From: Armatimonadota bacterium
GTDB taxonomy: Bacteria > Armatimonadota > UBA5829 > DTJY01
Reading direction: 5' to 3'
Assembly: GCA_029907255.1 (NCBI GenBank)
Contig: JARYMF010000007.1
Span: 105,541 to 169,540, forward strand
DNA length: 64,000 nucleotides
Position numbers and translations under genes: made by a program. This document shows, piece after piece, positions 9,113 through 39,341 of the stretch (positions are counted from its first letter, which is position 1; each line of letters starts with the position of its first letter). The notes below the pieces were generated by a model. It was not told the origin of the DNA, did no database searches, and saw nothing but the letters and a program-made list of their open reading frames with translations.

Positions 9113-9232
9113 CGCCAAATCTCCAGAAACTGGACAATACTATCAGAGTTCTAAACAATGGTCAAGTGTCTTAATCGTTTGACAACCAGGGTTTTTAATG
9201 GCTATAATACCGCAAGTTTGGGAGGTAGTATC

Positions 9233-25189: not shown

Positions 25190-25201
25190 TCCTTCGAGAA
25201 G

Positions 25202-25242
25202 AGGAGCTCCCGATAGAATTGTAAGATGCGTCGGGAGCTCCT
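25202..25242 (+). terminator. 12-bp perfect hairpin after the deacetylase gene
   Basis: AGGAGCTCCCGA (25202-25213) pairs with TCGGGAGCTCCT (25231-25242) around a 17-nt loop. The U-tract is weak. Confidence 0.45.
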
Positions 25243-25328
25243 GTCTTTAACCAATAGGTTGACGTAGCAAGACTATCAATGTATATTTGAGTATGTGATA
25301 AACTTGGGCATTTTGGGGAGGTAACAAG

Positions 25329-25439
25329 TTGCGAATAAGGGCGAAAGAGTTAAGGAGGATTCGAAAGCGAAAGAAGGAAGCTTATAAAGCTAGAATGCGA
25401 GCGGCTCAGCAGCAGCAAACTTCGACCAAGAAGAAGTAG
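25329..25439 (+). CDS. possible 36-aa Lys/Arg-rich micro-protein
   Basis: TTG 25329 is preceded by GGGGAGG, and a TTGACG-17-TATATT promoter-like pair lies at 25259-25287. It translates to (M)RIRAKELRRIRKRKKEAYKARMRAAQQQQTSTKKK*. I recognised no homology. Confidence 0.2.
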   Translation: MRIRAKELRRIRKRKKEAYKARMRAAQQQQTSTKKK

Positions 25440-25528
25440 ATTATAGATTTTGCAGAATAGTTGAACTTTTTGTTGGGCTTGACGGTAAGATTAATTAAGA
25501 ACAAAGAGTCGTACGCGGTGCAGTGGCC

Positions 25529-25557
25529 TTTACAAAGGGATTGAGTTTTGCTATAAT
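25529..25557 (+). promoter_or_regulatory. sigma70-like promoter of the tRNA gene
   Basis: TTTACA (25529-25534), a 17-nt spacer, then TATAAT (25552-25557), about 20 nt before the tRNA 5' end. Confidence 0.5.
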
Positions 25558-25577
25558 ATTCACACCTCGAAAGTAGC

Positions 25578-25654
25578 GGCCCGTTCGTCTAGCGGTCTAG
25601 GATACGTGGTTCTCAGCCACGGGATCAGGGGTTCGAATCCCCTACGGGCTACCA
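25578..25654 (+). tRNA. tRNA-Glu (anticodon CUC), CCA encoded
   Basis: I folded the cloverleaf by hand. Acceptor stem GGCCCGT/ACGGGCT, D arm GTCT/GGAT, anticodon stem CGTGG/CCACG with loop TTCTCAG, and T arm AGGGG-TTCGAAT-CCCCT. Confidence 0.9.
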
Positions 25655-25661
25655 CATTATC

Positions 25662-25700
25662 GGCCCAAACGCATGGAAGTCGTTTGGGCCGTTTTGCTTT
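25662..25700 (+). terminator. rho-independent terminator after the tRNA
   Basis: GGCCCAAACG (25662-25671) pairs with CGTTTGGGCC (25681-25690), followed by GTTTTGCTTT. Confidence 0.7.
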
Positions 25701-25918
25701 ACTGACAATTGATGGTTTCTTCAATTTCACACCCCAGCTGAATTAGCTGTGGATGATCATTCGCAAGCTTTTTTGACCGTGTGATCATTCACCTTGTCGA
25801 AACTCAAGGCGGTCTAGTAAGTAATAGTTACACCAGGGAGTATACTCCACTTCTTTCCTCCTCGTTTCTAGTGAACGTTGTCATTGCCGATGTGCCTGCC
25901 TCTGAGCGCTCATGGGTG

Positions 25919-26104
25919 CTACTGCTGTCTGCCTTTTTGCAACTCATCCCACCACCATATTAGTATGCTATTGACCAGAAAAAGAATAGCTATGGTTTCC
26001 GAACTGTCTCTTCCTGGGACGATGTTATGATAGATAAACCAACCAAAACCCAGCGTTGAAAAGTAGAATCCAATCTTTGACTCACGTTGCCTGACCACAA
26101 ACAT
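25919..26104 (-). CDS. small two-TM membrane protein, possible orphan immunity remnant
   Basis: Two hydrophobic helices (IGFYFSTLGFGWFIY and TIAILFLVNSILIWWW). A strong RBS (AAGGAGG, 26164-26170) plus ATG 26153 lies upstream in another frame, which suggests a frameshifted longer gene. Confidence 0.3.
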   Translation of the reverse strand: MFVVRQRESKIGFYFSTLGFGWFIYHNIVPGRDSSETIAILFLVNSILIWWWDELQKGRQQ

Positions 26105-26197
26105 CCCATACTAAGAACCCCAAACCCGCAGATAACACGCTAGGTAGGTTCATCTGAATCCACCCTCCTTATGTGTTTGAGCACGCATCACCGCTGA

Positions 26198-26551
26198 CTA
26201 TGGCTGAGCCCATGCCGGGAAGTGGGAATTCCGTCCTCCTCTATATCCGATTGGGACATGAGAGATGAAGTGCCAATACCTGGCTCATAGTACCTTATTT
26301 TTGTGAAATCAAGCAAGAAATCCGTTGCTTGCCATCCCTGTTAGCTTTCCTTACGCTTATCCCATCTGCGTTAAACATATAGGTTGTAGTGACGCCAACG
26401 TTTGTCTCAGTGAGCATGTTGTTCTTTTAGTCTTAGGTAAACGATAAGTTCCGGCGCTGAGCATCTTTATTGCGGCGTCGTGGGTGTAAATCGTCGTTCC
26501 TACGCCTACTTTGGCTGCCAAGTGCGAATCGCTATAGTCATAATCAGCCAT
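26198..26551 (-). pseudogene. orphan Rhs/YD-repeat core C-terminal fragment B, frameshifted
   Basis: The minus strand reads DYDYSDSHLAAKVGVGTTIYTHD, then TETNVGVTTTYMFNADGISVRKANRDGKQ, then RYYEPGIG, then HFISHVPIGYRGGRN. These are spread over three frames with stops. Confidence 0.7.
26312..26420. repeat. copy 1 of a roughly 110-nt imperfect direct repeat (Rhs core DNA)
   Basis: agcaagaaatccgttgcttgccatccctgttagctttccttacgcttatcccatc... is about 80-85 percent identical by eye to 28503-28610. Confidence 0.8.
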
Positions 26552-26928
26552 GTCAACCAGACAAAAGGAGCTGCCGAGATGATAAACCGAACAGCAAGAG
26601 ACCAGGACTCTCGCCCCCAAATCGCAGTGTGCTCTTTTGGAATAGGACGCTCACCAAAGCATGCTGGCCATTTTCTTATCAGCATCCCGAATGGTACGTA
26701 TAAAAAACGGAACCCGCCAGGCGAGACAACCCATCCAGCCAATGCTCCGGTGCCGAGCAACAATAGCACTGCACCAGCGATAAACTGTGGATAAACATCC
26801 GAGATCTGCGCCGGCGGCTGGATACGCAACGGCAAGCACAGCATGTGAACGCCGACAACAGCCATGAAATAGAATGCAAGCCCAAAAAGGGCCTGGCCTT
26901 TAAGCGCCCCAAATTCGGCTTTCTTCAA
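26506..26928 (-). CDS. four-TM membrane protein of unknown function (candidate immunity-type gene)
   Basis: 140-aa ORF with a TTG start and four hydrophobic segments. Its 3' end overlaps the start of Rhs fragment B. Confidence 0.35.
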   Translation of the reverse strand: MKKAEFGALKGQALFGLAFYFMAVVGVHMLCLPLRIQPPAQISDVYPQFIAGAVLLLLGTGALAGWVVSPGGFRFLYVPFGMLIRKWPACFGERPIPKEHTAIWGRESWSLAVRFIISAAPFVWLTWLIMTIAIRTWQPK

Positions 26929-27099
26929 CCTGACGAATAGTTCGGCGAGAACAAGCCAACCGGAAACAATAATTTCAGCAAACTATTATAAACATCCATT
27001 AAATCAAACCTCCCATCAGTAGCCCCGACTTTGCGTACAGCATTCGTGCACCTCGCAGCAGGGGCTTTCCAAATTTTTGTATATGTCCGAACATGCCAT

Positions 27100-27240
27100 C
27101 TACTCCATTGCCCACCTATCTGCATTCCTACCCAAGCAGACTGCCAAGCAAAGGAGATATCCTAGCACACCGCCAATCACGGCTAAGCCATAAGCAACAA
27201 AACACCACACGATACCTAGGCTGTTACAGCTACCGACCAT
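27100..27240 (-). CDS. possible 46-aa single/double-TM peptide
   Basis: ATG 27240 lies 7 nt after the TGA of the upstream ORF. It translates to MVGSCNSLGIVWCFVAYGLAVIGGVLGYLLCLAVCLGRNADRWAME*. Confidence 0.2.
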   Translation of the reverse strand: MVGSCNSLGIVWCFVAYGLAVIGGVLGYLLCLAVCLGRNADRWAME

Positions 27241-27247
27241 CTCAGTA

Positions 27248-27752
27248 TCACTTACGATTTGGTTTGTCAACCTTGCCTATATAATAGCCTGCAACGTCAG
27301 GGGCTAACAAGAAAACCCATAAGGGCATCCATCCAAGTTCCCACAGGTGAAAGCCGTAAAGTAAAAATTCGAGAACTAAGCGAATCGGCACAACACCTAT
27401 CATGAGTGCATAGCTCCACTTCTCTCGACATATCAAGATATAAAAACAACATGCTCACGCCATAAAAGGTAACTAACCCAAACCACCAACCGTAACCAAA
27501 AATGGCCGCAGTCGTGCATAGAAGCAGAACAATTAAGGCGGAAGATGCAGCCATACGGCGTATAGAGCGCTCTGTCACACCAGAACCGCCAATCCGCATG
27601 CCCATGAATTTGGGGTACAACCGGCCTGCAGAGGTGTTCCGTATGACTTGCCTGCCAACGAATAGCCAGTCTAAAAGAATTACTAAACCACATATCCCCG
27701 AAAGAATCGCTGTTATAATTATGCTATCTGTTACTGACATAAGAAATCCCAT
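27248..27752 (-). pseudogene. multi-pass membrane protein apparently split by a frameshift near 27430
   Basis: ORF 27297-27752 is hydrophobic until ...MLFLYLDMSRE. Hydrophobic coding then continues in ORF 27248-27436 (KWSYALMIGVVPIRLVLEFLLYGFHLWELGWMPLWVFLLAP). The start overlaps the end of Rhs fragment A by 29 nt. Confidence 0.35.
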
Positions 27753-28696
27753 CCTGTGCTAAATGTACGATTTTATTTCCAGGGCACAAGCAAATTAACC
27801 GTAGGCGGTTCAACTGAATTAACGTTAATTGGATTTGCAAAATATTTGTAAATAGATTTCTTTTACATTTCTCGGAATTCCTGCACGCAAGGGAGCAAAA
27901 CAATACCAGACCAAAGGCAATTGTGCGCGGCAAGACACATTTGGGTGCTTCTGGGCTCACAATTGCACACATCTGACATGGAGAAATAGCTCCACCCAAA
28001 AGGGATGCTATGCAAGTAAACGTGCAGTTTCCGTACGGTATCTCTGACAGTGGCAGAGGTGGCGGTGGCATTGTTATCTGCTGCTTTATTAATCCATAAG
28101 GGTCTAGAAATGTTGTAGGCCAATACCCAACATATTCACGCAGGTTTACTCCACCAACATATGCAATCGAATCCATCGAAACGAAGCGGCCAACACTTGG
28201 ATCACAGTGCCTTGCCTTCAGGTAGGTGTAAACGTGTCGAATCAGCATAGTACCTGTATTGCCCGGCGAAACCGAGGTTTGGGGTTCCTCCGAAAGAGAC
28301 AAGCATGTTCCTATAAGCATCATAGACCGCTGCTTCGAGGATTGCTGGTGGTGTACTGCCATCACTCTTCACCCTCGTGCTCCCAATTCCATCCGCGTGG
28401 GGTAGATTTCCTGTGTCTCTTCCTTTATTCTGTTAAGCAGTCCAGGTTTAACATACTATGCGACGCTATTGCTAGTTTTTCCTTCAAATATCAGTAAAAT
28501 TCAGCAAGAAATCCATTGCCTGCCATCCCTGTTAGCCTTCCTTACCCTTATCCCATCCGTGTTATACATAGGTTGTCATAACACCACCGTTTGTCTTGGT
28601 AAGCTTGTTACCTTTGGTGTCATAGGTGAACGTGCAGTTGCCGGCAGTGGCGTACTCATAAGCAATCCATTTGCCATCCTGGGCTAGTGGGAGCAT
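27724..28696 (-). pseudogene. orphan Rhs/YD-repeat C-terminal fragment A with a Cys-rich C-terminal tail, multiply frameshifted
   Basis: The minus strand reads KWIAYEYATAGNCTFTYDTKGNKLTKTNGGVMTTYV*, then NTDGIRVRKANRDGRQ, then AVYDAYRNMLVSFGGTPNLGFAGQYRYYADSTR. The last segment is YTYLKARHCDPSVGRFVSMDSIAYVGGVNLREYVGYWPTTFLDPYGL followed by a 110-aa tail. Four frames are used. Confidence 0.75.
28503..28610. repeat. copy 2 of the roughly 110-nt imperfect direct repeat (Rhs core DNA)
   Basis: agcaagaaatccattgcctgccatccctgttagccttccttacccttatcccatc... has a 1-nt deletion relative to copy 1 that shifts the frame. Confidence 0.8.
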
Positions 28697-28794
28697 CTAG
28701 GATTGGGGAAATGGTTTATAATGAGAGCATTAATATACATGACTCATATTCGACCATGTATCAACGCGCATGAACTTGGCAGACGCCGTGGCTT

Positions 28795-29202
28795 TCACCG
28801 TTCGTCTTGGATAATCTCGGCTTCGAGCACGAATAAGGGTGAACGAGAGCGTACCAGCGATGCTTTCACTGTCACCATGCCGCCAACTCGCACAGGTTCC
28901 CTATATTCGACGTGTAGGTTCGCCGTTACTGCCGATATGCCCTTTATCAGCAGGCAGTTCGTCATGGCGGAATCGAGAACAGTAGCTATAATGCCGCCAT
29001 GTGCAATTCCTGGATAACTCTGATATCGGGCTTCGCAGAACCATTCGGCCGAAACGGTATCTTTGGCACTCACCTTAAATGTCAGACCTAGGCCGTCTTT
29101 GCCGTTCCCGCAGGCGAAACAGTTGCGGTAAAGGTCGGCAGCGCTGGTGCTCTCTTCTGCGTTTGATTGTTTTGCATTCTGCGGCAGTTCTAGTGATCGC
29201 AA
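28795..29202 (-). CDS. PaaI/hotdog-fold thioesterase
   Basis: CFACG...GLGLTF...GIAHGGIIATVLDSAM...VEYREPV is the hotdog pattern. I trimmed the ORF to TTG 29202, which has AGGAG 7 nt upstream. The long ORF version overlaps the NifX-like gene. Confidence 0.7.
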   Translation of the reverse strand: MRSLELPQNAKQSNAEESTSAADLYRNCFACGNGKDGLGLTFKVSAKDTVSAEWFCEARYQSYPGIAHGGIIATVLDSAMTNCLLIKGISAVTANLHVEYREPVRVGGMVTVKASLVRSRSPLFVLEAEIIQDER

Positions 29203-29245
29203 GGATTTGCTCCTGTCTCCAGCGTCCCATCGAGATACGCAGCTA

Positions 29246-29527
29246 CTATGTCGGCAGGAGGAGCAACGGATAGCCCACGCATACCTGAATTCCATTCTGT
29301 GCGAATAGGCCCTGGGCGCGGACTCCCATTCCTCCGGCGATAACAACAGTAACTCCCATCTCGTGCAGCCATCTCGGAAGCAGTCCGGGTTCATGTTCGG
29401 GCGCGGGAATCGTTTGTGTGTTGACGATTTCGTTGTTTTTAGGGTCAACATCCACAATCGTGAATTCATCGGAATGTCCGAAGTGAGGACAGAGAAGGCC
29501 ATTTGCAGTAGGTATAGCGATCTTCAT
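29246..29527 (-). CDS. NifX/NifB-C-terminal-like (dinitrogenase FeMo-cofactor-binding fold) protein
   Basis: MKIAIPT...HFGHSDEFTIVDV...PGLLPRWLHEMGVTVVIAGGMGVRAQGLF is typical of this small-protein family. Confidence 0.8.
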   Translation of the reverse strand: MKIAIPTANGLLCPHFGHSDEFTIVDVDPKNNEIVNTQTIPAPEHEPGLLPRWLHEMGVTVVIAGGMGVRAQGLFAQNGIQVCVGYPLLLLPT

Positions 29528-29564
29528 TTTAGGTATATACTACCTCCTTTATGTATTTGATTGG

Positions 29565-30455
29565 TTATTCCAGTTTGTGCTTTACAGCATTCCATAGCGA
29601 TTTGATATCGCTGGACGCAGGGCCGTTGTCATATTCGACAACGCTTTTACAAACTATCTGAGCCCGAGTGACTGCCTCGTCATAGCGAATTTCACCTAGG
29701 AAGCTTGTGTTCCGTTCGATACATCGTTCGCGGATCACCGCAGTCATTTCGGGATTGAGGTCACTTTTATTAATGCAGACTACTGTTGGAATCTTAAAAT
29801 AGGCGGCCAAATCAGCAACACGGTCCATGTCGTGTAGTCCAGATAGAGTCGGCTCCGTTACTATGAGTACCAAGCTTGCGCCGGTGGTGGAAGCTATGAC
29901 GGGGCAGCCGATGCCGGGCGGGCCATCGATTATGATTAGTTCGAGGCCGTTTTCTTCAGCGATTCTTTTTGCTTCTCTTCTGATTATCGTGACAAGCTTG
30001 CCGGAGTTCTCCTCGGCGAGCCCAAGCTTTGCGTGAACCATTGGGCCGTGTCTAGTTTCAGAGACGAACCATTCTCCGTTGATGCTTGGAAAGAAATTCA
30101 CAGCTTTGACGGGGCAGACGTAGACGCAGACTCCACAGCCTTCGCAAGCTATGGTATCAATCTGATAGGTCTTGCCGACGACGTCGTTTGGAGGGCCGTC
30201 GAAGCTAATAGCGTCAAATCGGCACATAGACGCGCACTTTCCACATCCTATGCATTTGTCGGCTAGGATTGACGCTTTCTTGCTACCGCTGAACTCCTCG
30301 CGGCGCACGATTTTGGGAGACAGCACTAGATGTAGGTCGGCGGCATCCACATCGCAGTCGGCAAGCACTTTGTTTTCTGCAAGAGCGGCGAACGAGGCGA
30401 CAACACTTGTTTTACCTGTTCCGCCCTTTCCGCTTATCACGACAAGCTCTTTCAC
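29565..30455 (-). CDS. MinD/ParA-type P-loop ATPase with an inserted 2x[4Fe-4S] ferredoxin domain
   Basis: The Walker A motif is ISGKGGTGKTS. Cluster motifs CIGCGKCASMC and CEGCGVCVYVCP lie between Walker A and the rest of the ATPase. Confidence 0.85.
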   Translation of the reverse strand: MKELVVISGKGGTGKTSVVASFAALAENKVLADCDVDAADLHLVLSPKIVRREEFSGSKKASILADKCIGCGKCASMCRFDAISFDGPPNDVVGKTYQIDTIACEGCGVCVYVCPVKAVNFFPSINGEWFVSETRHGPMVHAKLGLAEENSGKLVTIIRREAKRIAEENGLELIIIDGPPGIGCPVIASTTGASLVLIVTEPTLSGLHDMDRVADLAAYFKIPTVVCINKSDLNPEMTAVIRERCIERNTSFLGEIRYDEAVTRAQIVCKSVVEYDNGPASSDIKSLWNAVKHKLE

Positions 30456-30542
30456 GGATTCTTACCTTTCTTGTGTTTTTTTGTATCAGGTCCTGCGTAC
30501 ATAAAATATGGGGTTGCTGAATTAAGCCTAATTCCAGTCAAT

Positions 30543-31352
30543 TCATATGCACCAGGACATCCCAGCTTGGCCAATGGTAACTTGCGAGCCAAGATTGGAC
30601 CTGAGATACTGATATGCTTTCGCCCCTGTGCAGTGGCAGCAGGCTATCTGTCCTATATCCATGTTTTGCAGGAATACGGCGAGCGATTCCAGCCTGTCTT
30701 CATCTGCGTTGCCCAGATGAAATCCGCCTGCGAGTAGGTCAATACGCGTTACACCCGCCACATTCATTGCAGCGAGTACGTTGTTCTCGACTCCCCTGTG
30801 CGCACAGCCAACCAGCACGGCAAGCCTGCCGCCGTTTCGCACGATTAGACACTGTTCATCCTCAAAAGTGTCTTGCGTAAGTTCGTCATCGCCTGTTAGA
30901 AACCTGCTTTCGAATATGTGCGTTCCAGTAATTGGTGTAATCTCTCCACTCAGAATCACACCTGGCAGAACTTCGACCGCCGATTTGTTGAGCGCGAAAG
31001 CTGCTTTCCGCAGCACGACTTCCGCAGGCATTCCAATGTAACGCATCCCAACTGTTGATTGCGCGTACTTCGGTTGAAAACATGCAGGGTGTGCAAAGTA
31101 TGCTATCCCAGGCAATTCCTTCATTGCTCTAATCAGTCCGCCGGTATGATCGTAGTGCCCATGGCTGAGACCTATGGCTTTTATCGCTCCGGGCTCGCGT
31201 CCAAGAGCAATTAAGTTGTGTAGCCACGCGTCGGTCTGCCCAGTGTCGAACATGACTGCCCCATCGTTGGTTTCAACGAGAAAGCTCAGTCCGTGTTCCG
31301 ACTTTAGTCTGTCACTTGCTGCTTCGTTATCAACAAGGAGTGTTATTTTCAT
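30543..31352 (-). CDS. MBL-fold metallo-hydrolase
   Basis: LVDN...HGLSFLVE...LSHGHYDHTGGL motif. ATG 31352 overlaps the Mrp gene end by 23 nt. Confidence 0.75.
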   Translation of the reverse strand: MKITLLVDNEAASDRLKSEHGLSFLVETNDGAVMFDTGQTDAWLHNLIALGREPGAIKAIGLSHGHYDHTGGLIRAMKELPGIAYFAHPACFQPKYAQSTVGMRYIGMPAEVVLRKAAFALNKSAVEVLPGVILSGEITPITGTHIFESRFLTGDDELTQDTFEDEQCLIVRNGGRLAVLVGCAHRGVENNVLAAMNVAGVTRIDLLAGGFHLGNADEDRLESLAVFLQNMDIGQIACCHCTGAKAYQYLRSNLGSQVTIGQAGMSWCI

Positions 31353-32169
31353 CACGTGGTCCAGCTGTTTGCGCTTGTTTTATCGCCGTCAGCCGGCTTA
31401 TAATCAAATCAATTTTATCGGCAATAGGGTTTAACATGTGGTCTTCAATTGTCCCAGCATCGGAATGGGACGATATTTCTGGGTCAATCGGCAAGTCGAC
31501 CAGGTGAGGAATCCCCATATCGCGGGCGATATGTTCCCCATTAGAGTTTCCGAATGGGTAGTTGACACTGCCGCATTTTGGACACCTAAGCCATGCCATG
31601 TTTTGAACTAGCCCGAGAATAGGTGCGTTCATCTTTCGACACATATCCACTGCCTTCCGCACAACCATTGCGGCTAGTTCCTGTGGCGAGGTTACTATTA
31701 CCACGCTGTCCAGGGGAAGTGACTGCATTACGGTGAGAGGGACATCGGCCGTGCCGGGTGGGAGGTCTGCCAACAGATAGTCAAGCTTGCCCCAGAACAC
31801 ATCCTTCCAAAACTGCTTGACCGCATTTGAGATTAAAGGGCCGCGCCAAATCACGGCCTCATAGGGGCTGTCGAGCAACAGATTGATGGAAATAACTCTT
31901 ATTCCGGAGCTAGTCTTGACTGGGAATATGCCAAACTCATTTATCTCAGGCCTTTCAGCTATTCCGAACATTTTCGGAATGCTTGGGCCGGTAACGTCCG
32001 CGTCAAGTATCCCGACCTCGTGTCCAGCTTTTCTGAGAGCGCAGGCAAGCAGGCTGGTAACAAGCGATTTGCCTACGCCTCCTTTGCCGCTCATTACGCC
32101 TAGCACATTAGCAACCTCGTTCGATTGCTCGGCTAGCGTGAGATGGTCGGTGGTTCGTACATCCGCCAT
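31330..32169 (-). CDS. Mrp/NBP35/ApbC-type Fe-S cluster carrier ATPase
   Basis: GVMSGKGGVGKS Walker A and a downstream CPKCG motif. GGAGG lies 5 nt upstream of ATG 32169, which begins immediately after the radical-SAM stop (TAA at 32171-32173). Confidence 0.85.
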   Translation of the reverse strand: MADVRTTDHLTLAEQSNEVANVLGVMSGKGGVGKSLVTSLLACALRKAGHEVGILDADVTGPSIPKMFGIAERPEINEFGIFPVKTSSGIRVISINLLLDSPYEAVIWRGPLISNAVKQFWKDVFWGKLDYLLADLPPGTADVPLTVMQSLPLDSVVIVTSPQELAAMVVRKAVDMCRKMNAPILGLVQNMAWLRCPKCGSVNYPFGNSNGEHIARDMGIPHLVDLPIDPEISSHSDAGTIEDHMLNPIADKIDLIISRLTAIKQAQTAGPRDENNTPC

Positions 32170-32170
32170 T

Positions 32171-33124
32171 TTATCCTCCAATCACACAACGATAGTAAGG
32201 GTCAGTGTCCCCGATTTGTTCTATGAGTCCTTCTTGCATGAGATGTTGCAGATGCTTTGTAACCTCGTGAATATTTCGGCCTGAAGCAGTGACAATATCG
32301 TCTATGGTGCAAGGCCTTCTGGAGAGCATCCGCATTAGCTCGTCTCTGACCTCCTGCCATTGCCACCTATCAGCAGGCATTACCACTCCGCCTGCGATAA
32401 TCTCGACCGAGCCACCGAAGGTTTCACATGCTCTTCTAAGCGTCTCTGATGAGACGCGCTTGGCGTCTCCGGATTTTGATGGTCTTTCAACCGTGTTTAA
32501 CTGCAATTTGTCGGGACAGACCAGTCGGACAACTTCGTGCATCGCACGAAGTTCGGCATCTGAGTCATTGACTCCCTTGACTAGCATAATCTCCAGCCAG
32601 ATTTTGCCAGGGAACTCTTGTGCTGTTTGCACAAGACCTTCGGTCATTCTGGCGAAACTGATGCCGGGCGCAGGTCTATTTACTGCATGAAAAGTATGCT
32701 GAGTTCCAGCGTCCAAGGAAGGTAGCAAAACGTCTGCCATCGAAACTGCGTCACGTATTTCGACATTGTCGAGCAGCGAACCATTCGTAATCACAGCTAA
32801 TGGAATATTGGTGAGTTTCTTTATCGCCCGAATCATCTCGCCAAGATCAATGTTTAGCGTAGGTTCGCCGGAGCCTGCGAATGTGATGTAATCAGCGATT
32901 CCACCGTGTTGCACCCAATGCTCAATCTCTCTAATAACATCTGGTGCGTCGACAAGCCGTTCAGGCGTGGAAGTCAGTTTGGTGGTGCATCCGAGCTGAC
33001 AATAGATACAGTCGTAGCTACAGACTTTGTGCGGCACGATGTCTACCCCCAGCGACCGTCCAAGTCGCCTGGATGGCACTGGCCCATATAGGTATTTATA
33101 TTTTACAGGGGCTTTTGCGCTCAT
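32171..33124 (-). CDS. radical SAM enzyme with a C-terminal winged-helix-like extension
   Basis: CSYDCIYC (CxxxCxxC), GSGEPTL, and a C-terminal tail ...LSRRPCTIDDIVTASGRNIHEVTKHLQHLMQEG. The start is ATG 33124, and a longer ORF to 33208 is possible. Confidence 0.8.
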   Translation of the reverse strand: MSAKAPVKYKYLYGPVPSRRLGRSLGVDIVPHKVCSYDCIYCQLGCTTKLTSTPERLVDAPDVIREIEHWVQHGGIADYITFAGSGEPTLNIDLGEMIRAIKKLTNIPLAVITNGSLLDNVEIRDAVSMADVLLPSLDAGTQHTFHAVNRPAPGISFARMTEGLVQTAQEFPGKIWLEIMLVKGVNDSDAELRAMHEVVRLVCPDKLQLNTVERPSKSGDAKRVSSETLRRACETFGGSVEIIAGGVVMPADRWQWQEVRDELMRMLSRRPCTIDDIVTASGRNIHEVTKHLQHLMQEGLIEQIGDTDPYYRCVIGG

Positions 33125-33254
33125 TATGTCTCTGTCGGCCTTTCCTAATAGGTAATAGAAAACAACATGCGGGCGTTCTTTGCCGCTTTGAGCCTTTTGA
33201 AATCGCAATTAAAGCTACGCTGTCTCTACTTTTATCCTGCGAATCTTTCTTTTG

Positions 33255-33893
33255 TCAGTCTTCTTCTAGCTGTGCTTTCGAAAGAGCTTCAGCGATTGCC
33301 CTCTCATCTAAAACGCCAAACAGCTCATTGGCTGCCGTCTTCTTTCCTGAAGCAACCCACGCGCGTGTGATAGTGAACTCCTTGGTCTCAACACTATCGA
33401 ACGATGAGCGCAAATGCTGGTCGATGTCTTCGGTGGACATCTCGCCCTTTCGGTGTTTCCCCTTGCCTTGCATCTGATGGTGCAGTTCCATCAACTCAAA
33501 TCCCTTTGCATTGAACTCCACTATGAGTAGCCTTCCATTATCAGCTAGCACCCGTGTTATTTCGTCAAGCACACCGCTTGGATTGTCAATTTCATGGATG
33601 GCATTCACAAAAGTTATTGCGTGGAAACTGCCTTCATCGAACGGAAGCTTGTGTGCATCCAAGATTACAAGCGTGGGTTTATCGGCTAGACTGCCGAGTC
33701 GCTCCCTGGTTTTGTCCAATGCCTCTTGGTTGATGTCGCCTGATATCACCGAATATCCCCGCTTTAGAATCTGCAAGAGCATTCGGCCTGAGCCGGTGGC
33801 GACATCCAGGACCGTATCCCTAGTATCGAAGCTTGCAAGGTCAAGCGCCGCATCGTACTCGCTGACAAGCACAGCCTCCCGCTCGTACAGCAT
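33255..33893 (-). CDS. class I SAM-dependent methyltransferase
   Basis: VLDVATGSGRM (motif I) ...ISGDIN... pattern. ATG 33893 lies 4 nt after the MinD-ferredoxin stop. Confidence 0.8.
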   Translation of the reverse strand: MLYEREAVLVSEYDAALDLASFDTRDTVLDVATGSGRMLLQILKRGYSVISGDINQEALDKTRERLGSLADKPTLVILDAHKLPFDEGSFHAITFVNAIHEIDNPSGVLDEITRVLADNGRLLIVEFNAKGFELMELHHQMQGKGKHRKGEMSTEDIDQHLRSSFDSVETKEFTITRAWVASGKKTAANELFGVLDERAIAEALSKAQLEED

Positions 33894-33897
33894 CTTT

Positions 33898-34761
33898 TCA
33901 AGATTGGAGTTGCGCAATAGTAACACCTTTCAGCAGCGATTCGAACGCCGCGGTATATTCGGGCAGTGCCTCGATGATAAGTTTGCCTCGCGAGTAAGCT
34001 TCTGCAATTCGTTTGTCGTCAGGTATTTGCAAAAGCACCTCAATGGACTCGCTGGCGCAGTAGTCGAAAACGGCTTCGTCGCCAATATCGGCACGGTTTA
34101 CAACAACCCCAAATGGCAGCTTCAGTACCCTGAGCATCTCAACGGCCAGCTTCAAATCATTTAGGCCAAACGGTGTCGGCTCAGTAACAAGGAGCACATA
34201 ATTAGCTCCTCTCACTGATTGTATTACCGGGCAGGAAGTGCCGGGGGGAGCATCGATTATGTTCAAACCGCCGTCTGTTTTTTTCTTTCTGACTTCTCTT
34301 ATAAGAGGTGGTGACATCGCCTCGCCAATTCTGAGCTTCCCATGCACAAATTTAATTCCGTTCGCCGTTCCCTCTTCAACAACTCCTACTTCGCGGCCAG
34401 CCTCGGTTATTGCGCCTGTCGGACAGACCAGCACACAACCGCCACATCCATGGCATAGATTTGGAAATGTGAGGACAGTTTTGCCGAGTAGTGCTATCGC
34501 GCTGTACTGGCATATCTCCTTGCACTTTCCGCAAGCCGTACATTTGTCCTTATCCACAACGGGAACGGGAACAAAAACGGAGGTCGTTTTCTCAAGCATA
34601 GGCTTCAGGAATATGTGGCCGTTCGGTTCCTCAACGTCGCAGTCAAGGTAGCTGACGTCAAATCCCTGCATTTCCGCAACGCGCGCCAAATTAGTCGCTA
34701 TGGTTGTCTTGCCGGTGCCGCCTTTCCCGCTGGCCACCGCAATGGTAGTTGTATTTATCAC
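33898..34761 (-). CDS. MinD/ParA-type P-loop ATPase with an inserted 2x[4Fe-4S] ferredoxin domain (paralog)
   Basis: ASGKGGTGKTT Walker A, with CTACGKCKEIC and CHGCGGCVLVCP cluster motifs. GTG 34761 lies 2 nt after the upstream TAA. Confidence 0.85.
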   Translation of the reverse strand: MINTTTIAVASGKGGTGKTTIATNLARVAEMQGFDVSYLDCDVEEPNGHIFLKPMLEKTTSVFVPVPVVDKDKCTACGKCKEICQYSAIALLGKTVLTFPNLCHGCGGCVLVCPTGAITEAGREVGVVEEGTANGIKFVHGKLRIGEAMSPPLIREVRKKKTDGGLNIIDAPPGTSCPVIQSVRGANYVLLVTEPTPFGLNDLKLAVEMLRVLKLPFGVVVNRADIGDEAVFDYCASESIEVLLQIPDDKRIAEAYSRGKLIIEALPEYTAAFESLLKGVTIAQLQS

Positions 34762-34763
34762 TT

Positions 34764-35123
34764 TTACCAGTGCTTCTCCACATCAGCAGAGTCTATTGGG
34801 TTTAGCTTTCCAGACTTGAACTCCTCAATAGCTTCTCCAACAGTGCCTTGAAACCCCACGTAAGTTCTGATTCCCGCAGCCGACAGAACGCGGAAAGCGT
34901 TCGGTCCCACGTGACCTGTTAGAACTGCTTCGACGTTCAGTAAAACAACATTCTGGGCTGTCTGTATCCCCGCGCCCTGTACGGCGTTCAGGTTGACTTC
35001 GTTATCATGCACCTCGGTATTTCCGGTCTCAGTGTCAATGACTATGAGATACCGAGCACGTCCGAACCTTTGGTCAACATTGCTTTCAATAGACGGTTCT
35101 TTTGCAGTGATTGCCACTCTCAT
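34764..35123 (-). CDS. NifX/NifB-C-terminal-like protein
   Basis: DQRFGRARYLIVIDTE...GAGIQTAQ...LTGHVGPNAFRVLSAAGI. The ATG overlaps the upstream TGA (TGATG). Confidence 0.8.
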   Translation of the reverse strand: MRVAITAKEPSIESNVDQRFGRARYLIVIDTETGNTEVHDNEVNLNAVQGAGIQTAQNVVLLNVEAVLTGHVGPNAFRVLSAAGIRTYVGFQGTVGEAIEEFKSGKLNPIDSADVEKHW

Positions 35124-35371
35124 CAGAAAGTGCGTCTCCTGCCTCGGCCTTGTCTTCGGCCACCTCCCATACCACGACCGCCTCCTCGGCGAATGCCATA
35201 GGCTCCAAGGCCGAAACTGCCAAGTGTCCCTTGCAGTATTTTTCCAAGCCAGCTAATTGGCTGCTGTGGGGTCGCTTGTGAACTATTAGTTCCAAGAGGG
35301 TTACAAGGCCCTTGTCCTCTACCCGTCATAGGTCCTTGTCCAGCAGGACCTGTTCCATCCATTCCTGGCAT
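35123..35371 (-). CDS. DUF5320-like glycine-rich small protein (82 aa) with an Arg/Gly tail
   Basis: GGAGG lies 8 nt upstream of ATG 35371. It translates to MPGMDGTGPAGQGPMTGRGQGPC...RRGGGRGMGGGRRQGRGRRRTF*. Confidence 0.65.
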   Translation of the reverse strand: MPGMDGTGPAGQGPMTGRGQGPCNPLGTNSSQATPQQPISWLGKILQGTLGSFGLGAYGIRRGGGRGMGGGRRQGRGRRRTF

Positions 35372-35393
35372 CTGATTAACCTCCGTTAGATAT

Positions 35394-35852
35394 TTACCAT
35401 CCGCCACGCCCACGGCCTCCACGACCCATGCCTCGGCCGAGGCCCATACCGCCGCCCATGCCCATTCCTGGTCCTTGGCTGGGAGGGGCATTCATTCCAA
35501 AGTGGGCTGCAACTGTCGGCGCAGAGATTTCTTGTAGTGCTCCTGCTTTGAGTAGATTCACTGCGTTCCTCACGGTTTCTCCCGCGCACGAGTATACCTT
35601 GATTCCAGCCGCAGAGAGCGCTTGGTACGCATTCGGACCCAGATTGCCGGCTATCACGGCCGACACCCCAAGGGATGAGAGCACTTGTGCCGCTTGAATT
35701 CCCGCGCCTTGCGCCGACATTGCCCCAGGGTTTTGGACGGCAGATGCATCGAACGTCTCTGTGTCAACAATGACGAAATACGCACACCTGCCAAATCTGG
35801 GGTCAACCAGCGCATCGAGTGTGTTGCCTGTTGAGCAAACTGCTACTTTCAT
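35394..35852 (-). CDS. NifX/NifB-C-terminal-like protein with a Gly/Met/Arg-rich C-terminal tail
   Basis: DPRFGRCAYFVIVDTE...GAGIQAAQ...IAGNLGPNAYQALSAAGI, followed by PPSQGPGMGMGGGMGLGRGMGRGGRGRGGW*. Confidence 0.8.
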   Translation of the reverse strand: MKVAVCSTGNTLDALVDPRFGRCAYFVIVDTETFDASAVQNPGAMSAQGAGIQAAQVLSSLGVSAVIAGNLGPNAYQALSAAGIKVYSCAGETVRNAVNLLKAGALQEISAPTVAAHFGMNAPPSQGPGMGMGGGMGLGRGMGRGGRGRGGW

Positions 35853-36154
35853 TTGGGTTTCGTTCCTTTCAAATAAGTTTTTCAAGTTACGATTTCATTT
35901 GTGAAGCTGAGCAGAAGGCCGGTGCCGGCTCCTGCTCAGAGTACGAATGACAGTCATAAGTCTTCGTTTCCTCGTTTTCGGTTAGGCATGTCTTTACGGC
36001 GACAGTCGCATTTTGACCACGAACGGCTGACACTAAGAAATTATCTTTTCATGCGCTGCCGCTGTCTGTCCACGACTATAAAGCATGCCAACTAGCTGAA
36101 TAGGGGATCTATCCTCGAATCGGGCATGCTGTTTATTGAATACGCCAGCTCCTA

Positions 36155-36457
36155 TTATTTGGTCTGAGCTTTTTCCAGATTCTCAATCTGGGACTTAATG
36201 GTAGCGAGTTGCTGTTCGAGTATCTCGGCTTGCTTCCTCAGGAACTCCAGCCGCGTCTGCGGCTCAAAGCCTGGCCAGCCACCTGGAGCGCCAGATTGTG
36301 CCATTGGCGCCGCTTGAAAAGTAGGCCACCGACCAGTTATGAGGTACTCTGCACAAGGGCCCAGCCCTGTCGCGCTCCGACCGACCCAACCGGGGCTGTA
36401 GCCGAATCGCATCCATCCAGGCAAGCCTGTAAGATAATACATGTTCCGATATCTCAT
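36155..36457 (-). CDS. DUF5320-like protein, C-terminal-half type (GLPGW motif plus coiled coil)
   Basis: AGGAGGT lies 6 nt upstream of ATG 36457. It carries YYLTGLPGWMRFGY and a C-terminal heptad-like LEFLRKQAEILEQQLATIKSQIENLEKA. Confidence 0.65.
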   Translation of the reverse strand: MRYRNMYYLTGLPGWMRFGYSPGWVGRSATGLGPCAEYLITGRWPTFQAAPMAQSGAPGGWPGFEPQTRLEFLRKQAEILEQQLATIKSQIENLEKAQTK

Positions 36458-36589
36458 CGTTCTACCTCCTTTTGCCGCCTTAACGGCGAATTAGCAATTT
36501 CTTAATTTCTCAAGAGATTGCAACTTTTGGTCTTTTCAAGCCGATTCTTGCCACCGCTAGCTGCTATCCCAACGCTGATAGGTGCGACC

Positions 36590-36862
36590 CTAGCTTGGTC
36601 CTTTTTTCAGCCGTGGTTGTTTTGGGAACACTTCGGTTACCGGCGTGGCGAATCCGGTATAAAAGGAATACCCTCCAGTCGGTCTTGTGCGGAACGAAGG
36701 TTCGAAGCCGATTCTGTTTCCGCGCCATCGCGCCGCTCCGCAACCGAAGCTTAAGACTGCAGGGTTAGCGAATCCCGACATGCAGTAACCGGCACAATAC
36801 CCAACCCTTCGACCGGTCATAGGTCCTAATCCGAGGGGGCCGGTCCCATCACCTTTTGGCAT
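36590..36862 (-). CDS. DUF5320-like protein, N-terminal-half type
   Basis: MPKGDGTGPLGLGPMTGRRVGYCAGYC... An alternative start is ATG 36895. The RBS is weak (AAGGAA). Confidence 0.55.
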   Translation of the reverse strand: MPKGDGTGPLGLGPMTGRRVGYCAGYCMSGFANPAVLSFGCGAARWRGNRIGFEPSFRTRPTGGYSFYTGFATPVTEVFPKQPRLKKGPS

Positions 36863-37100
36863 GTCTTCCTTCTTTGCGCCGCCAGTCTCTGACATCACCG
36901 CACTTAGGTTGGGTGATAGGTGTAACTTACACTTATGATTATACCCTACCATTCCATGGGAGTCAACATATTTTTCAATTTACTTAGAAATTTTTTCTCT
37001 CGCCTAGGGAATCATTCGGCAGAAAACCTTGGCGAACGTGAGCGAGCTAATTGTGGTATTTTTCAAAGCGGCATGCAAGTTCAGAGGTATGCAGTAACAC

Positions 37101-37126
37101 ACCACTTAATGCTAGCATTAAGTGGT
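37101..37126. promoter_or_regulatory. perfect 26-bp palindrome, candidate PadR operator in the divergent control region
   Basis: I checked ACCACTTAATGCTAGCATTAAGTGGT base by base. It lies between candidate promoters at 37050-37078 (minus) and 37164-37192 (plus). Confidence 0.5.
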
Positions 37127-37280
37127 TCAGGCTGCGTCTAGATTGTGAGGACATTCTCGAATATATACAAGCGGCACGAGATGTGATAGAATTATAACGC
37201 TATGGTACCCGTGACATAAGCGACGCAAAGCGCATGACTGGGGCCGTGGTGTTTTTGAAAAAACAAGGAGTTGCTAGTTC

Positions 37281-37712
37281 ATGCCCAGAAGATATTGCCA
37301 TCGGCACGCGGCTAGAGGCCCGTGCACCTGTGCGATGGGAAATCTCTATAGGTTTGTAGAGCCGGTTGTTCTGTATATGCTGGCGAAAAAGGGGTCAGCT
37401 TATGGCTACGAACTCGCGGCTGACTTGGCCGACCACGCTCTTACCGACGCCGAGATTGACCGCGGAGCGCTTTATCGAACCCTTCAGCGACTTGAAGCGA
37501 TGGGGTATGTTACCTCCGACTGGGACACCAGCGGGTCCGGTCCACCACGCCACGTTTACAGAATTACTGAAAGCGGCAGGGGACATCTTCGCGAATGGTC
37601 TGTGGTTTTGAGCAACCTGGCTCGCTCCATGGATGCCTTTGTGCATGACGTGAAGTCCCTTGGCGAAGCTGATACGGAATCGGCTGAATCACCGATTGCA
37701 GATGTACATTAG
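37281..37712 (+). CDS. PadR-family transcriptional regulator with a Cys/His-rich N-terminal extension
   Basis: LYMLAKKGSAYGYEL...GALYRTLQRLEAMGYV...HVYRITESG is a winged helix of PadR type. The N-terminus is MPRRYCHRHAARGPCTC. Confidence 0.8.
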   Translation: MPRRYCHRHAARGPCTCAMGNLYRFVEPVVLYMLAKKGSAYGYELAADLADHALTDAEIDRGALYRTLQRLEAMGYVTSDWDTSGSGPPRHVYRITESGRGHLREWSVVLSNLARSMDAFVHDVKSLGEADTESAESPIADVH

Positions 37713-37810
37713 GCCCATTGTGTAACAGCGAAAACTGCCTATTTAGACTTTAAAGAAAAATCTCCTTCATTGTGAGTCTGGGCGTCGCCAAGGTGCTTTC
37801 CCACATTACT

Positions 37811-37851
37811 GGCACAAGACGCTTTTTACGCGTTTTGTGCCGGTTTGCTTT
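37811..37851 (+). terminator. rho-independent terminator candidate downstream of padR
   Basis: GGCACAAGACGC (37811-37822) pairs with GCGTTTTGTGCC (37830-37841), 12 bp with one G-U, followed by GGTTTGCTTT. Confidence 0.5.
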
Positions 37852-38762
37852 ATTAGGTGGTGAAGCAACATCAAATTAGTGTTTCCATGCTCAGATTCTT
37901 TCGAAAACGGCAGAGGGTTTGAATCACAATTAACAAACTCATTGCGAAACTTTATTTAGCCAGCAGACAAAATTGAAAAAATGGAGAAAGTTGCGAAAGT
38001 AAAATTTTATGCTTCTAAGGCTTGCGAAAGACCGTTCAGATAATGTGCTGTAACTTAAAAAGGCGTAAGCTTGGTTGATTTGATGTTTGATTTTCTATTG
38101 CCACTCTCTTAGCCTTAGCTGTATGCTTACTCATTATCACATCTACGAGTATTGGCAACATGGGGCGGATCAACTTATTGCCGTGAATGCAGCATGTCAA
38201 GAGATTGAAATATGCAGAAGCACGGAGGTTCATCTTCCAGCAATCGTTCAAACGCACCTCTTGTGAGCGTCATGCCTCTAGTAAGAAAGCTAACAAACAC
38301 TTCGGCAAACTTGAAGTAGCTGGCTACCCATATTCAGAAAAGCAGTCAAAGTATATGGCTAACGCCCTACACTGCTGGTTGATTGGAACACAAAACATCA
38401 TTTGAAGGAGTTTACCCTAAAATACGACACTGCTTGTATTGGCGGCACTGTCATTCCATTTGTGGGGCAGCCGCTTAAAATTTAGTTATGGCGGATATGT
38501 GTGCAGGGACGCAGAGCTCTCACGCCGGATAAGCGCGTTTTTAGATTGCCAGCGTCTACTTTGTTTTGCTTGCAGGTTGGGCGCTTGCGGTTTCGGGCGA
38601 GAAAGTAATTCTAAATTCTCGATTCTCGACATGAGACAGCTTTTTTGCGCACGCCTGCAGTAGCGTGTTTTTGAGGTTTGTTCAAAAAGCAACAAAGGAA
38701 CTTAAAAATATAAAGCTGAATGTATAGATGAAGCCATAAATTATAAGGGAATTGATTTAAAG

Positions 38763-39341
38763 TTGCTGGCGTTCAATCTGATTGGCTTGTGTATCCTGGC
38801 GGCTTGCTTTATTCTTGATAGGCACAAGACAGTTCGCTCTGTTCATCGGGGGCTGATGATGTTCTGGAAGATAGTCCCAGAGATGTCGGTTGTGCTTATC
38901 CTTATCAGCATTTCTCTTTCGGTTTTGACGCCAGCACAGCTTAGAGAGTGGCTCTCCGCTGATACTCCCGCGCATTTTGTATTGGCATTGGCTGTCGGCT
39001 CGGTCGCGCTCATACCTGGGTTTGTTGCTTTCCCACTAGCAGGAGTCTTGCTAAAGAATGGCGCATCTATAACGCTTGTTGCAGGTTTTTTGACAACGCT
39101 GTTACTCGTATCTCAGCCTCATCCTCAAGCTTCACCTTTGTATTGGACGTTTAGTCATAACGTTTCGCCATCTTCGAAGGCTTGGGGCGCTAAGGGATGT
39201 TCGGATTGTCATGCCCCAAATTCCCAATTCTTCAATTCCCCGGTGATAGTCGACCCATTTGACGACAAAGGCCGCCAAAAAAGCGTGCCAATGTGGCAAT
39301 ACTGCCGAATAAGTAAAGATGTGATTGAGGTGGGGAGTTGA
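38763..39341 (+). CDS. membrane permease-like N-terminal part fused to a soluble tail with one CxxCH motif (possible chimera or truncation)
   Basis: The first 115 aa or so form 4 hydrophobic segments ending GFVAFPLAGVLLKNGASITLVAGFLTTLLLV. Then comes SQPHPQ...AWGAKGCSDCHAPNSQFF...*. The TTG start has no clear RBS. Confidence 0.35.
   Translation: MLAFNLIGLCILAACFILDRHKTVRSVHRGLMMFWKIVPEMSVVLILISISLSVLTPAQLREWLSADTPAHFVLALAVGSVALIPGFVAFPLAGVLLKNGASITLVAGFLTTLLLVSQPHPQASPLYWTFSHNVSPSSKAWGAKGCSDCHAPNSQFFNSPVIVDPFDDKGRQKSVPMWQYCRISKDVIEVGS

Follow-up and report, generated by a model that had tools for sequence, protein, structure and literature searches.

A probable variant of the ORP system with features of IssA in an Armatimonadota bacterium

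What would a bacterium do with a gene cluster that combines NifX-fold proteins, ferredoxin-bearing ATPases and a radical S-adenosylmethionine (SAM) enzyme? The question is raised by thirteen genes, hereafter called g1 to g13, in a 64,000-nucleotide stretch of DNA from an Armatimonadota bacterium (contig JARYMF010000007.1, positions 105,541 to 169,540), which is the window analysed here. The list of open reading frames (ORFs) confirmed that all thirteen are co-directional on the minus strand, from 36862 to 28795, and that a PadR gene is divergent from them. A profile search against Pfam and NCBIfam recovered each domain named in the first-pass annotation: three Nitro_FeMo-Co (NifX-fold) proteins (g3, g5 and g12), two CbiA/ParA ATPases with two CxxCxxCxxxC motifs each (g6 and g11), an Mrp/NBP35 ATPase (g9), a radical SAM enzyme with a winged-helix tail (g8), a class I methyltransferase (g7), a metallo-beta-lactamase (MBL)-fold protein (g10), a hotdog thioesterase (g13) and three DUF5320-like peptides (g1, g2 and g4, the last two below threshold). 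The same annotation had regarded the neighbourhood of NifX-like and ferredoxin-MinD genes as lacking an assigned function, a view that has to be abandoned, as the neighbourhood is that of the orange protein (ORP) system (PMC6345978, PMC8359166). By analogy with characterized homologues, the locus is probably an Armatimonadota variant of this anaerobe-specific system with features of IssA, and would use ATP to store inorganic metal-sulfur species and hand them on.

The core of the cluster and the ORP system

The orange protein was reportedly found around 2000, and the complex is said to have been described in 2011. In Desulfovibrio the ORP system consists of five proteins, Orp3, Orp4, Orp5, Orp8 and Orp9, which form a physical complex (PMC6345978). 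Orp3 and Orp4 resemble MinD and each contain two [4Fe-4S] motifs, and Orp5 is a homologue of a small protein that binds a [2Fe-2S] cluster. Orp8 is ORP itself, the D. gigas form of which holds an S2MoS2CuS2MoS2 cluster non-covalently, and Orp9 is MrpORP, in which an Mrp domain is fused to a NifX-fold 'Di-Nase' domain with the motifs CXHFGHCE and CDH (PMC6345978). MrpORP is located at the cell pole and donates Fe-S clusters to Orp3-Orp4-Orp8; both the Orp complex and this transfer are documented only in D. vulgaris and D. alaskensis (PMC6345978). The orp operons are switched on by OrpR at very low redox potential, and the loss of OrpR leads to morphological defects (PMC8359166, PMC6345978).

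The likeness to this system, which is restricted to anaerobes, begins with the ATPases. Like Orp3 and Orp4, g6 and g11 are two paralogous MinD-like ATPases with two [4Fe-4S] motifs each, CTACGKCKEIC and CHGCGGCVLVCP in g6, and CIGCGKCASMC and CEGCGVCVYVCP in g11. Only three proteins in the window have a deviant Walker A motif, which in g6 reads SGKGGTGKT. Identity of the pair with the septum-site protein MinD was considered and rejected, g6 and g11 scoring 64.9 and 54.9 bits with TIGR01969 (cut-off 201.75) and 32.8 and 42.2 bits with TIGR01968 (cut-off 212.9).

MrpORP is present as two halves on separate genes. The NCBIfam model NF041136, with a cut-off of 450 bits, is matched by g9 at positions 3-256, the P-loop half (319.8 bits), and by the frameshifted g12 at positions 265-348, the C-terminal half (109.9 bits), and no single protein with both domains was found. 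The g12 sequence CPHFGHS...CDH contains the CXHFGH and CDH motifs of the Di-Nase domain. In contrast to the fused Desulfovibrio protein, the two halves are separated here by the MBL and MinD-b genes. With the Mrp/NBP35/ApbC carriers g9 shares the deviant Walker A motif and a CXXC motif, scoring 193.7 bits against ApbC, but its match to the P-loop half of MrpORP is better, and it sits in an ORP-type operon.

The counterparts of Orp8 are g3 and g5, both single-domain NifX-fold proteins of the ORP type, which are 51 % (over 100 amino acids) and 40 % (over 107 amino acids) identical, respectively, with D. gigas ORP (PDB 2WFB). The PDB matches of g5 were 1RDU (2.6e-19), 2WFB (3.3e-18) and 1EO1, which is MTH1175 (8.9e-15).

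The expected synteny in related genomes was also found, the gene order being conserved both in loci centred on ORP and in loci centred on the radical SAM gene. Among 58 loci with ORP orthologues the core is nearly constant: after ORP come the genes for MinD-Fer4 'a', for MinD-Fer4 'b' and for a NifX-like protein, and as a rule also those for a NifU-like protein and a small, Cys-rich Zn-ribbon protein. As this core is present in the window, the neighbourhood does have an identity. The ORP operons compared were those of Desulfobacterota, and D. vulgaris was not among the ORP homologue matches listed. One of these loci (L140; such numbers designate the related loci) has a Zn_ribbon_8 protein with a Cys-rich C-terminus after its last NifX-like gene (L140:10669-10917), which may be a [2Fe-2S]-binding protein of the Orp5/Dde_3197 type.

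The Armatimonadota cluster differs from these operons in several respects. None of the thirteen genes matches the small Cys-rich Zn-ribbon protein, and there is no NifU-like gene. Where Desulfovibrio has two divergent sigma-54 operons with OrpR, what appears to be a single sigma-70 operon with a divergent PadR gene is found. Three DUF5320 peptides, the radical SAM-winged-helix enzyme, the methyltransferase, the MBL-fold protein and the hotdog protein are added, and g3 carries an IssA-like tail.

The link to IssA and the DUF5320 peptides

In IssA of Pyrococcus furiosus a NifX-fold domain is followed by a disordered cationic tail in which Gly, Arg and aromatic residues are abundant. The protein keeps iron and sulfide in the form of anionic thioferrate and is able to rebuild [4Fe-4S] clusters (PMC5524996). 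Proteins are classed as IssA if they have an IPR003731 domain, an isoelectric point (pI) of at least 9, fewer than five Cys and at least 20 % Gly in the last 40 residues, and as IssX if the domain is combined with a pI of at least 8, fewer than ten Cys and at least 10 % Gly in the last 40 residues (PMC5524996, supplementary figure 7). The g3 protein likewise has an IPR003731 domain followed by a cationic, glycine-rich and presumably disordered tail, AHFGMNAPPSQGPGMGMGGGMGLGRGMGRGGRGRGGW, of 37 amino acids (Gly/Arg/Met-rich, pI 12, 43 % Gly, no acidic residues). With 3 Cys and a pI of 8.99 for the whole protein, it lies within the IssX limits and outright within two of the three IssA limits; the third, the pI, makes it a borderline case for IssA. 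The tail has 37 residues where that of IssA has 70, and it is rich in Met and has few aromatic residues, the aromatic/Gly/Arg character residing here on the separate DUF5320 peptides, and the host is a mesophilic bacterium.

The combination is not confined to g3. In the related loci that were fetched, 27 of 171 free-standing NifX-like ORFs lie within the IssA/IssX limits, including an ORP orthologue (L133) and the Armatimonadota orthologue in L003. MTH1175 has been classed as IssA-type (PMC5524996), and an 85 %-identical relative of it in Methanothermobacter is encoded within a NifX-Mrp-NifX-MinD-MinD operon. From this operon and from the IssA/IssX-type ORFs of the fetched loci it follows that ORP-type and IssA-type proteins share one kind of gene neighbourhood.

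Of the DUF5320 peptides, g1 alone exceeds the Pfam gathering score of 27, and g2 and g4 fall just below it, matching complementary halves of the model (g2 positions 39-99 of 99, the C-terminal half; g4 the N-terminal half). The g1 peptide, with the motif MPKGDGTGP...GYCAGYC, contains 19 % Gly, 13 % Arg plus Lys, 13 % aromatic residues and 11 % Pro. In g2 an aromatic and Gly-rich N-terminal part precedes a C-terminal coiled coil, and g4 (pI 12, 29 % Gly) is 58-66 % identical with its counterparts in L001, L002 and L004 and 45 % identical with that in L003. The composition of the DUF5320 peptides resembles that reported for the IssA tail. Small Gly/Arg-rich ORFs were 5-fold enriched within 1.5 kb of NifX-like genes (p = 4e-4), and in the Desulfobacterota a cationic low-complexity protein of 112 amino acids (GQGRGQGRG...) is encoded upstream of ORP (L140:7414-7752). 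In DPANN archaea (Woesearchaeota, Nanoarchaeota and Pacearchaeota; L149, L150, L151 and L153) DUF5320 genes are found about 1.3 kb or less from a NifX-like gene, and in these four loci no MinD-Fer4, Mrp or radical SAM gene is nearby. The genomes of these DPANN hosts are very small. We infer from composition and neighbourhood that the DUF5320 peptides may be detached counterparts of the IssA tail. In the literature searched nothing relevant was found on DUF5320 or on the inserted-ferredoxin neighbourhood, nor any paper that proposed DUF5320 as a detached tail or linked the radical SAM-winged-helix enzyme to ORP.

A possible division of labour follows the homologues, in which Mrp/NBP35 carries a bridging [4Fe-4S] cluster and hands Fe-S to the complex of the MinD-ferredoxin pair with the ORP-type NifX-fold protein, and in which NifX-fold proteins hold anionic metal-sulfur species without covalent ligands (Mo-Cu-S in ORP, thioferrate in IssA). 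In the Armatimonadota cluster g9 would be the Fe-S donor, g6 and g11 would form a heterodimeric redox-active ATPase in which ATP hydrolysis and electron transfer drive the loading or release of cargo, and g3 and g5 would be the non-covalent holding proteins. The tail of g3 and the peptides g1, g2 and g4 would clamp the anionic cargo electrostatically, as fused and detached versions, respectively, of the IssA tail. The g6/g11 pair may also reduce the radical SAM enzyme g8, the gene for which follows or lies between the ATPase genes in many genomes. The general idea of the first-pass annotation, that the cluster handles metal-sulfur clusters at the expense of ATP and in a role unrelated to nitrogen fixation, agrees with the experiments on homologues (PMC6345978, PMC5524996).

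Several points weigh against the assignment of the locus to an ORP system with IssA features. Four of the thirteen genes have no assigned role in it. The operon may be partly decayed, as g12 and g1 are damaged and hydG and the nifU-like gene are absent. The g3 protein reaches the pI limit for IssA only marginally (8.99 against at least 9), and the idea that DUF5320 peptides act as tails is drawn only from their composition and neighbourhood. The role of the ORP complex itself was still called unclear in 2021 (PMC8359166), and the authors of the Desulfovibrio work favour a link to cell division.

The radical SAM enzyme, the accessory genes and other readings

The g8 protein was modelled with AlphaFold2 (AF2) at a mean predicted local distance difference test (pLDDT) score of 91, with a canonical winged helix at residues 253-313 consisting of three helices and then a hairpin. 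Only the CX3CX2C cysteines are conserved in its family (sets of 73 and 50 sequences), in which an N-terminal GPVPSRRLG is also conserved and the winged helix has an RRPC motif throughout. The family is large (all 8000 candidates scored at E ≤ 1e-10), and the closest relatives of g8 come from Armatimonadota genomes from anaerobic systems. According to Foldseek, viperin, TYW1, PFL-AE and NifB are about equally good matches to the fold, all with a template modelling (TM) score of about 0.5; NifB was found at ranks 18-20 with TM 0.51-0.52, the same as for unrelated radical SAM enzymes, and was absent from the NCBIfam matches of g8. Because only CX3CX2C is conserved and the fold match is generic, g8 is not a NifB equivalent, and the suggestion in the first-pass annotation that the locus supplies the parts of NifB in trans is not sustained.

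Other identities were considered for g8. MoaA and viperin were rejected together with NifB, their scores being far below the cut-offs and the fold matches generic, and TYW1 was rejected at 33.9 bits with TIGR03972 (cut-off 317.95). Family members carry the JGI (Joint Genome Institute) label 'wyosine synthetase'.

The neighbours of g8 homologues were counted within 10 kb in the loci of 80 relatives, from Armatimonadota, Desulfobacterota, Spirochaetota, Planctomycetota, Acidobacteriota, Zixibacteria and others, using matches that covered at least 50 % of the query. An ORP-type gene of any kind was found in 43 of the 80 loci, MinD-Fer4 in 37, a NifX-like gene in 36, Mrp in 21 and MBL in 19. The g8 homologue was often directly after or between two MinD-Fer4 genes, and NifU_N, FeS_assembly_P, TrmO_N, Methyltransf_11, Zn_ribbon_8 and the hotdog protein were also recurrent neighbours. 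OrpR-like sigma-54 activators with a Cys-containing PAS domain accompany g8 homologues in 11 other loci. When loci were instead centred on ORP, a g8-type gene was present in only about one in six, so that it is an accessory rather than part of the ORP core.

The methyltransferase g7 is a variable accessory, homologues being found in 8 of the 80 radical SAM loci (at least 50 % coverage) or in 14 of 72 by clustering; its best NCBIfam matches were far below the cut-offs, and it falls in no equivalog family. The MBL-fold protein g10 matched 2P4Z (2e-34) and 3H3E (TM1679; 4e-31) in the PDB. It presumably resembles COG1237, which together with COG1149 and COG1433 we take to be the families of the cluster, and nothing relevant was found in the literature under these numbers. 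The hotdog and MBL genes recur as a pair, repeatedly adjacent, in L021, L028, L036, L057, L073 and L136. We infer that g7, g8, g10 and g13 are optional accessory enzymes.

The clusters of some relatives are larger. In L002, the closest complete Armatimonadota relative, a HydG orthologue (8536-9966; TIGR03955 546 bits, cut-off 312) is encoded between the methyltransferase and radical SAM-winged-helix genes, as it is in L004 (L004:8601-9941); hydG is also found in the Planctomycetota (L028:4328-5731), and L001 keeps a remnant of 96 amino acids (L001:9687-9974). L002 and L004 have a NifU-fusion gene after the third NifX-like gene. The Planctomycetota clusters L028:7011-9532 and L057:5713-9078 encode a PvlArgDC-like (pyruvoyl-dependent arginine decarboxylase-like) protein and a pyridoxal phosphate (PLP) enzyme of Cys/Met metabolism, to which L028 adds DUF169, and L057 adds two more methyltransferases and then an EamA transporter (L057:9096-9965). 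Planctomycetota versions also carry a flavin mononucleotide (FMN) reductase, and the additions look like a small-molecule pathway.

These enzymes bear on a second reading, in which the cluster is devoted to the assembly of a novel Fe-S cofactor, complex or organometallic, in a manner resembling NifB in trans and with NifH-like ATPases. The scaffolds share their operon with a radical SAM enzyme, a SAM methyltransferase, an MBL-fold protein and a thioesterase, HydG orthologues occur in the clusters of L002, L004 and L028, and the PvlArgDC-like, PLP, methyltransferase and FMN reductase proteins of the Planctomycetota look like the biosynthesis of a small molecule or ligand. NifX-fold carriers, radical SAM and SIMIBI ATPases with Fe-S are common to the cluster and to nitrogenase maturation (NifB, NifX, NafY and NifH). 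However, g8 lacks the conserved ligands of auxiliary clusters (the K-cluster Cys/His of NifB, whose radical SAM domain is in most cases joined to a NifX-like one) and has no specific relation to NifB, and g6 and g11 carry ferredoxin inserts rather than the bridging cluster of NifH. The statement that nitrogenase genes are absent stood for nifH, no NifH motif and no annotated nitrogenase-related gene being found in the window; nifDK and nifEN were not searched exhaustively. The accessory enzymes, moreover, vary by genome and are absent from most canonical ORP operons, hydG is absent from the window, and no candidate client enzyme is encoded nearby. A dedicated cofactor line is thus possible but unlikely.

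A broader version, which must be considered more doubtful still, would make the extended ORP/IssA clusters a third assembly line for complex metalloclusters beside Nif and Hyd. The NifX-fold proteins would be occupied by an unusual Fe-S species, inorganic or organometallic, for which a thioferrate-like polymer or the product of a HydG-type synthon are candidates; cationic, detachable DUF5320 peptides would clamp it, and the ferredoxin-MinD pair would spend ATP to supply a dedicated, cargo-modifying radical SAM enzyme with low-potential electrons.

In a further reading, originally put forward for the ORP complex of Desulfovibrio, the cluster is chiefly a MinD-like device for positioning or cell division, with Fe-S clusters as redox sensors that couple division to anaerobiosis. 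The morphological defects on loss of OrpR and the polar position of MrpORP (PMC8359166, PMC6345978) would fit this, as would C-terminal amphipathic 11-mers in g6 and g11 with hydrophobic moments of 0.46 and 0.54, compared with 0.45 for the membrane-targeting sequence of E. coli MinD. It is nevertheless improbable, as the scores with the MinD models fall far short of the cut-offs, genes for MinC, MinE or division are lacking nearby, the constant partners (NifX-fold, Mrp and NifU-like) are proteins that bind clusters, and DPANN archaea keep the NifX-like protein and DUF5320 without the ATPases. That the DUF5320 peptides are precursors resembling ribosomally synthesised and post-translationally modified peptides (RiPPs), modified by the radical SAM enzyme with its winged-helix domain and the methyltransferase with which the three share an operon, is very hard to credit, given that their N-terminal motif is long, strongly conserved across Bacteria and Archaea and found beside NifX-like genes without radical SAM, that no protease or transporter is among the thirteen genes, and that the winged helix of g8 (three helices and a hairpin) presumably differs from the PqqD-type recognition element.

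As a variant of the ORP system, the locus is new in its PadR/sigma-70 control, in having MrpORP split over two genes and an ORP orthologue with an IssA-like tail, and in its three DUF5320 peptides and set of accessory enzymes. ORP systems are widely distributed among strictly anaerobic Bacteria and Archaea, and the locus and its relatives tie together ORP, MrpORP and the thioferrate-storage protein IssA, which have so far been treated apart. Recurrent partners which are unmentioned in the literature searched, namely the radical SAM-winged-helix enzyme, DUF5320, the MBL and hotdog pair and, in some genomes, HydG, give testable ideas on how anaerobes store and hand over iron and sulfur. By itself the locus is a partly damaged copy in an uncultured, anaerobic bacterium, and a lead rather than a discovery.

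Gene calls, integrity and regulation of the locus

The features of the locus are listed in Table 1.

Table 1. Genes of the cluster and the divergent regulator, with positions in the window
Gene	Product	Position	Strand	Evidence and remarks
g1	DUF5320 peptide	36590-36862	-	Pfam PF17253, 57.8 bits; pI 10.2
g2	DUF5320-like peptide	36155-36457	-	Pfam 23.3 bits, below cut-off of 27; own GGAGG ribosome-binding site
g3	ORP-like NifX-fold protein with cationic tail	35394-35852	-	Nitro_FeMo-Co, 88.6 bits
g4	DUF5320-like Gly/Arg-rich peptide	35123-35371	-	Pfam 25.8 bits, below cut-off; GGAGG ribosome-binding site
g5	Second ORP-like NifX-fold protein	34764-35123	-	Nitro_FeMo-Co, 80.6 bits; no Cys, no tail
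g6	MinD-like ATPase, 'a' paralogue, inserted 2x[4Fe-4S] ferredoxin	33898-34761	-	Pfam CbiA, ParA, Fer4
g7	Class I SAM methyltransferase	33255-33893	-	Methyltransf_11, 64.7 bits; start 33893 as in Logan call
g8	Compact radical SAM enzyme with C-terminal winged helix	32171-33124	-	Pfam Radical_SAM, CSYDCIYC; AF2 model
g9	Mrp/NBP35 Fe-S carrier ATPase	31330-32169	-	Pfam; CPKC motif
g10	MBL-fold protein	30543-31352	-	Pfam Lactamase_B
g11	MinD-like ATPase, 'b' paralogue, ferredoxin insert	29565-30455	-	Pfam CbiA/ParA, Fer4
g12	Free-standing Di-Nase, MrpORP type	ORF 29246-29527; 29190-29527 with displaced C-terminus	-	Nitro_FeMo-Co; NF041136
g13	PaaI-like hotdog thioesterase	28795-29202	-	4HBT, 46 bits; TTG start
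	PadR-family regulator	37281-37712	+	Pfam PadR, 68 bits

The junctions between the genes were as first described: the stop codon of g4 overlaps the start codon of g5 (TGATG at 35123), there are gaps of 2 nucleotides at 34762-34763 and of 1 nucleotide at 32170, and an overlap of 23 nucleotides is found at 31330-31352. The DNA of the locus is also present in the public Logan assembly of run SRR27730047, in which g2 is called as a gene and g1 and g4 are uncalled. The start of g13 must be the TTG at 29202, not a codon inside the long ORF of 235 amino acids; the Logan call is 135 amino acids.

The g12 gene is frameshifted, with the conserved C-terminus ...AYLDGTLETGANPCDH in another frame that ends at 29190. 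The lesion is a 1-nucleotide deletion at about 29272-29276, near a GGG run (29274-29276), and once one base is restored, the alignment of g12 with five relatives spans the whole protein, C110 and H112, which are invariant, lying in the displaced part. The Logan contig carries the same truncated gene call of 93 amino acids. A programmed frameshift was ruled out, the site not being a slippery heptamer. The g1 gene keeps the N-terminal 80 residues of DUF5320, 55 % identical with residues 1-80 of the full-length L001 orthologue (118 amino acids), and has lost the coiled coil of the family, a remnant of which (36608-36540) is read in another frame and contains a stop codon; in this region (36540-36625) the change of frame is close to a run of six A. 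Neither hydG nor a nifU-like gene, both present in the close relatives L002 and L004, is found in the window, and with the damage to g12 and g1 this makes the window copy somewhat eroded.

The cluster appears to be one operon under sigma-70/PadR control. A promoter scan found a sigma-70-like promoter, TTGACT-17-TATAAT, on the minus strand at 36966-36938, about 75 nucleotides upstream of g1 and with an 11/12 match; no sigma-54 -24/-12 motif was found upstream of g1. Between the divergent promoters is a perfect palindrome of 26 bp, ACCACTTAATGCT|AGCATTAAGTGGT, at 37101-37126, which is unique in the window. It is only a candidate operator, because it is not conserved in L002, L003 and L038, the Armatimonadota loci in which PadR homologues also adjoin the cluster. 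The gap between g2 and g3 (about 300 nucleotides; 35886-36154) has a weak promoter-like site at 36068-36040 and, spotted by eye, a GC-rich imperfect hairpin at about 35905-35935; it may contain an internal promoter or a processing site.

No riboswitch or other RNA was found upstream of or within the operon, the sole RNA match in 25000-38800 being a tRNA-Glu. This tRNA-Glu(CTC), at 25578-25654, precedes a stretch of about 3 kb (25700-28700), immediately downstream of the operon, whose ORFs have no Pfam match, some of them being membrane-like. The flanking genes have carbohydrate and cell-wall functions and are unrelated to the cluster. The G+C content is 0.49-0.52 in the operon and 0.45-0.47 in the flanks, and the operon may be an acquired island.

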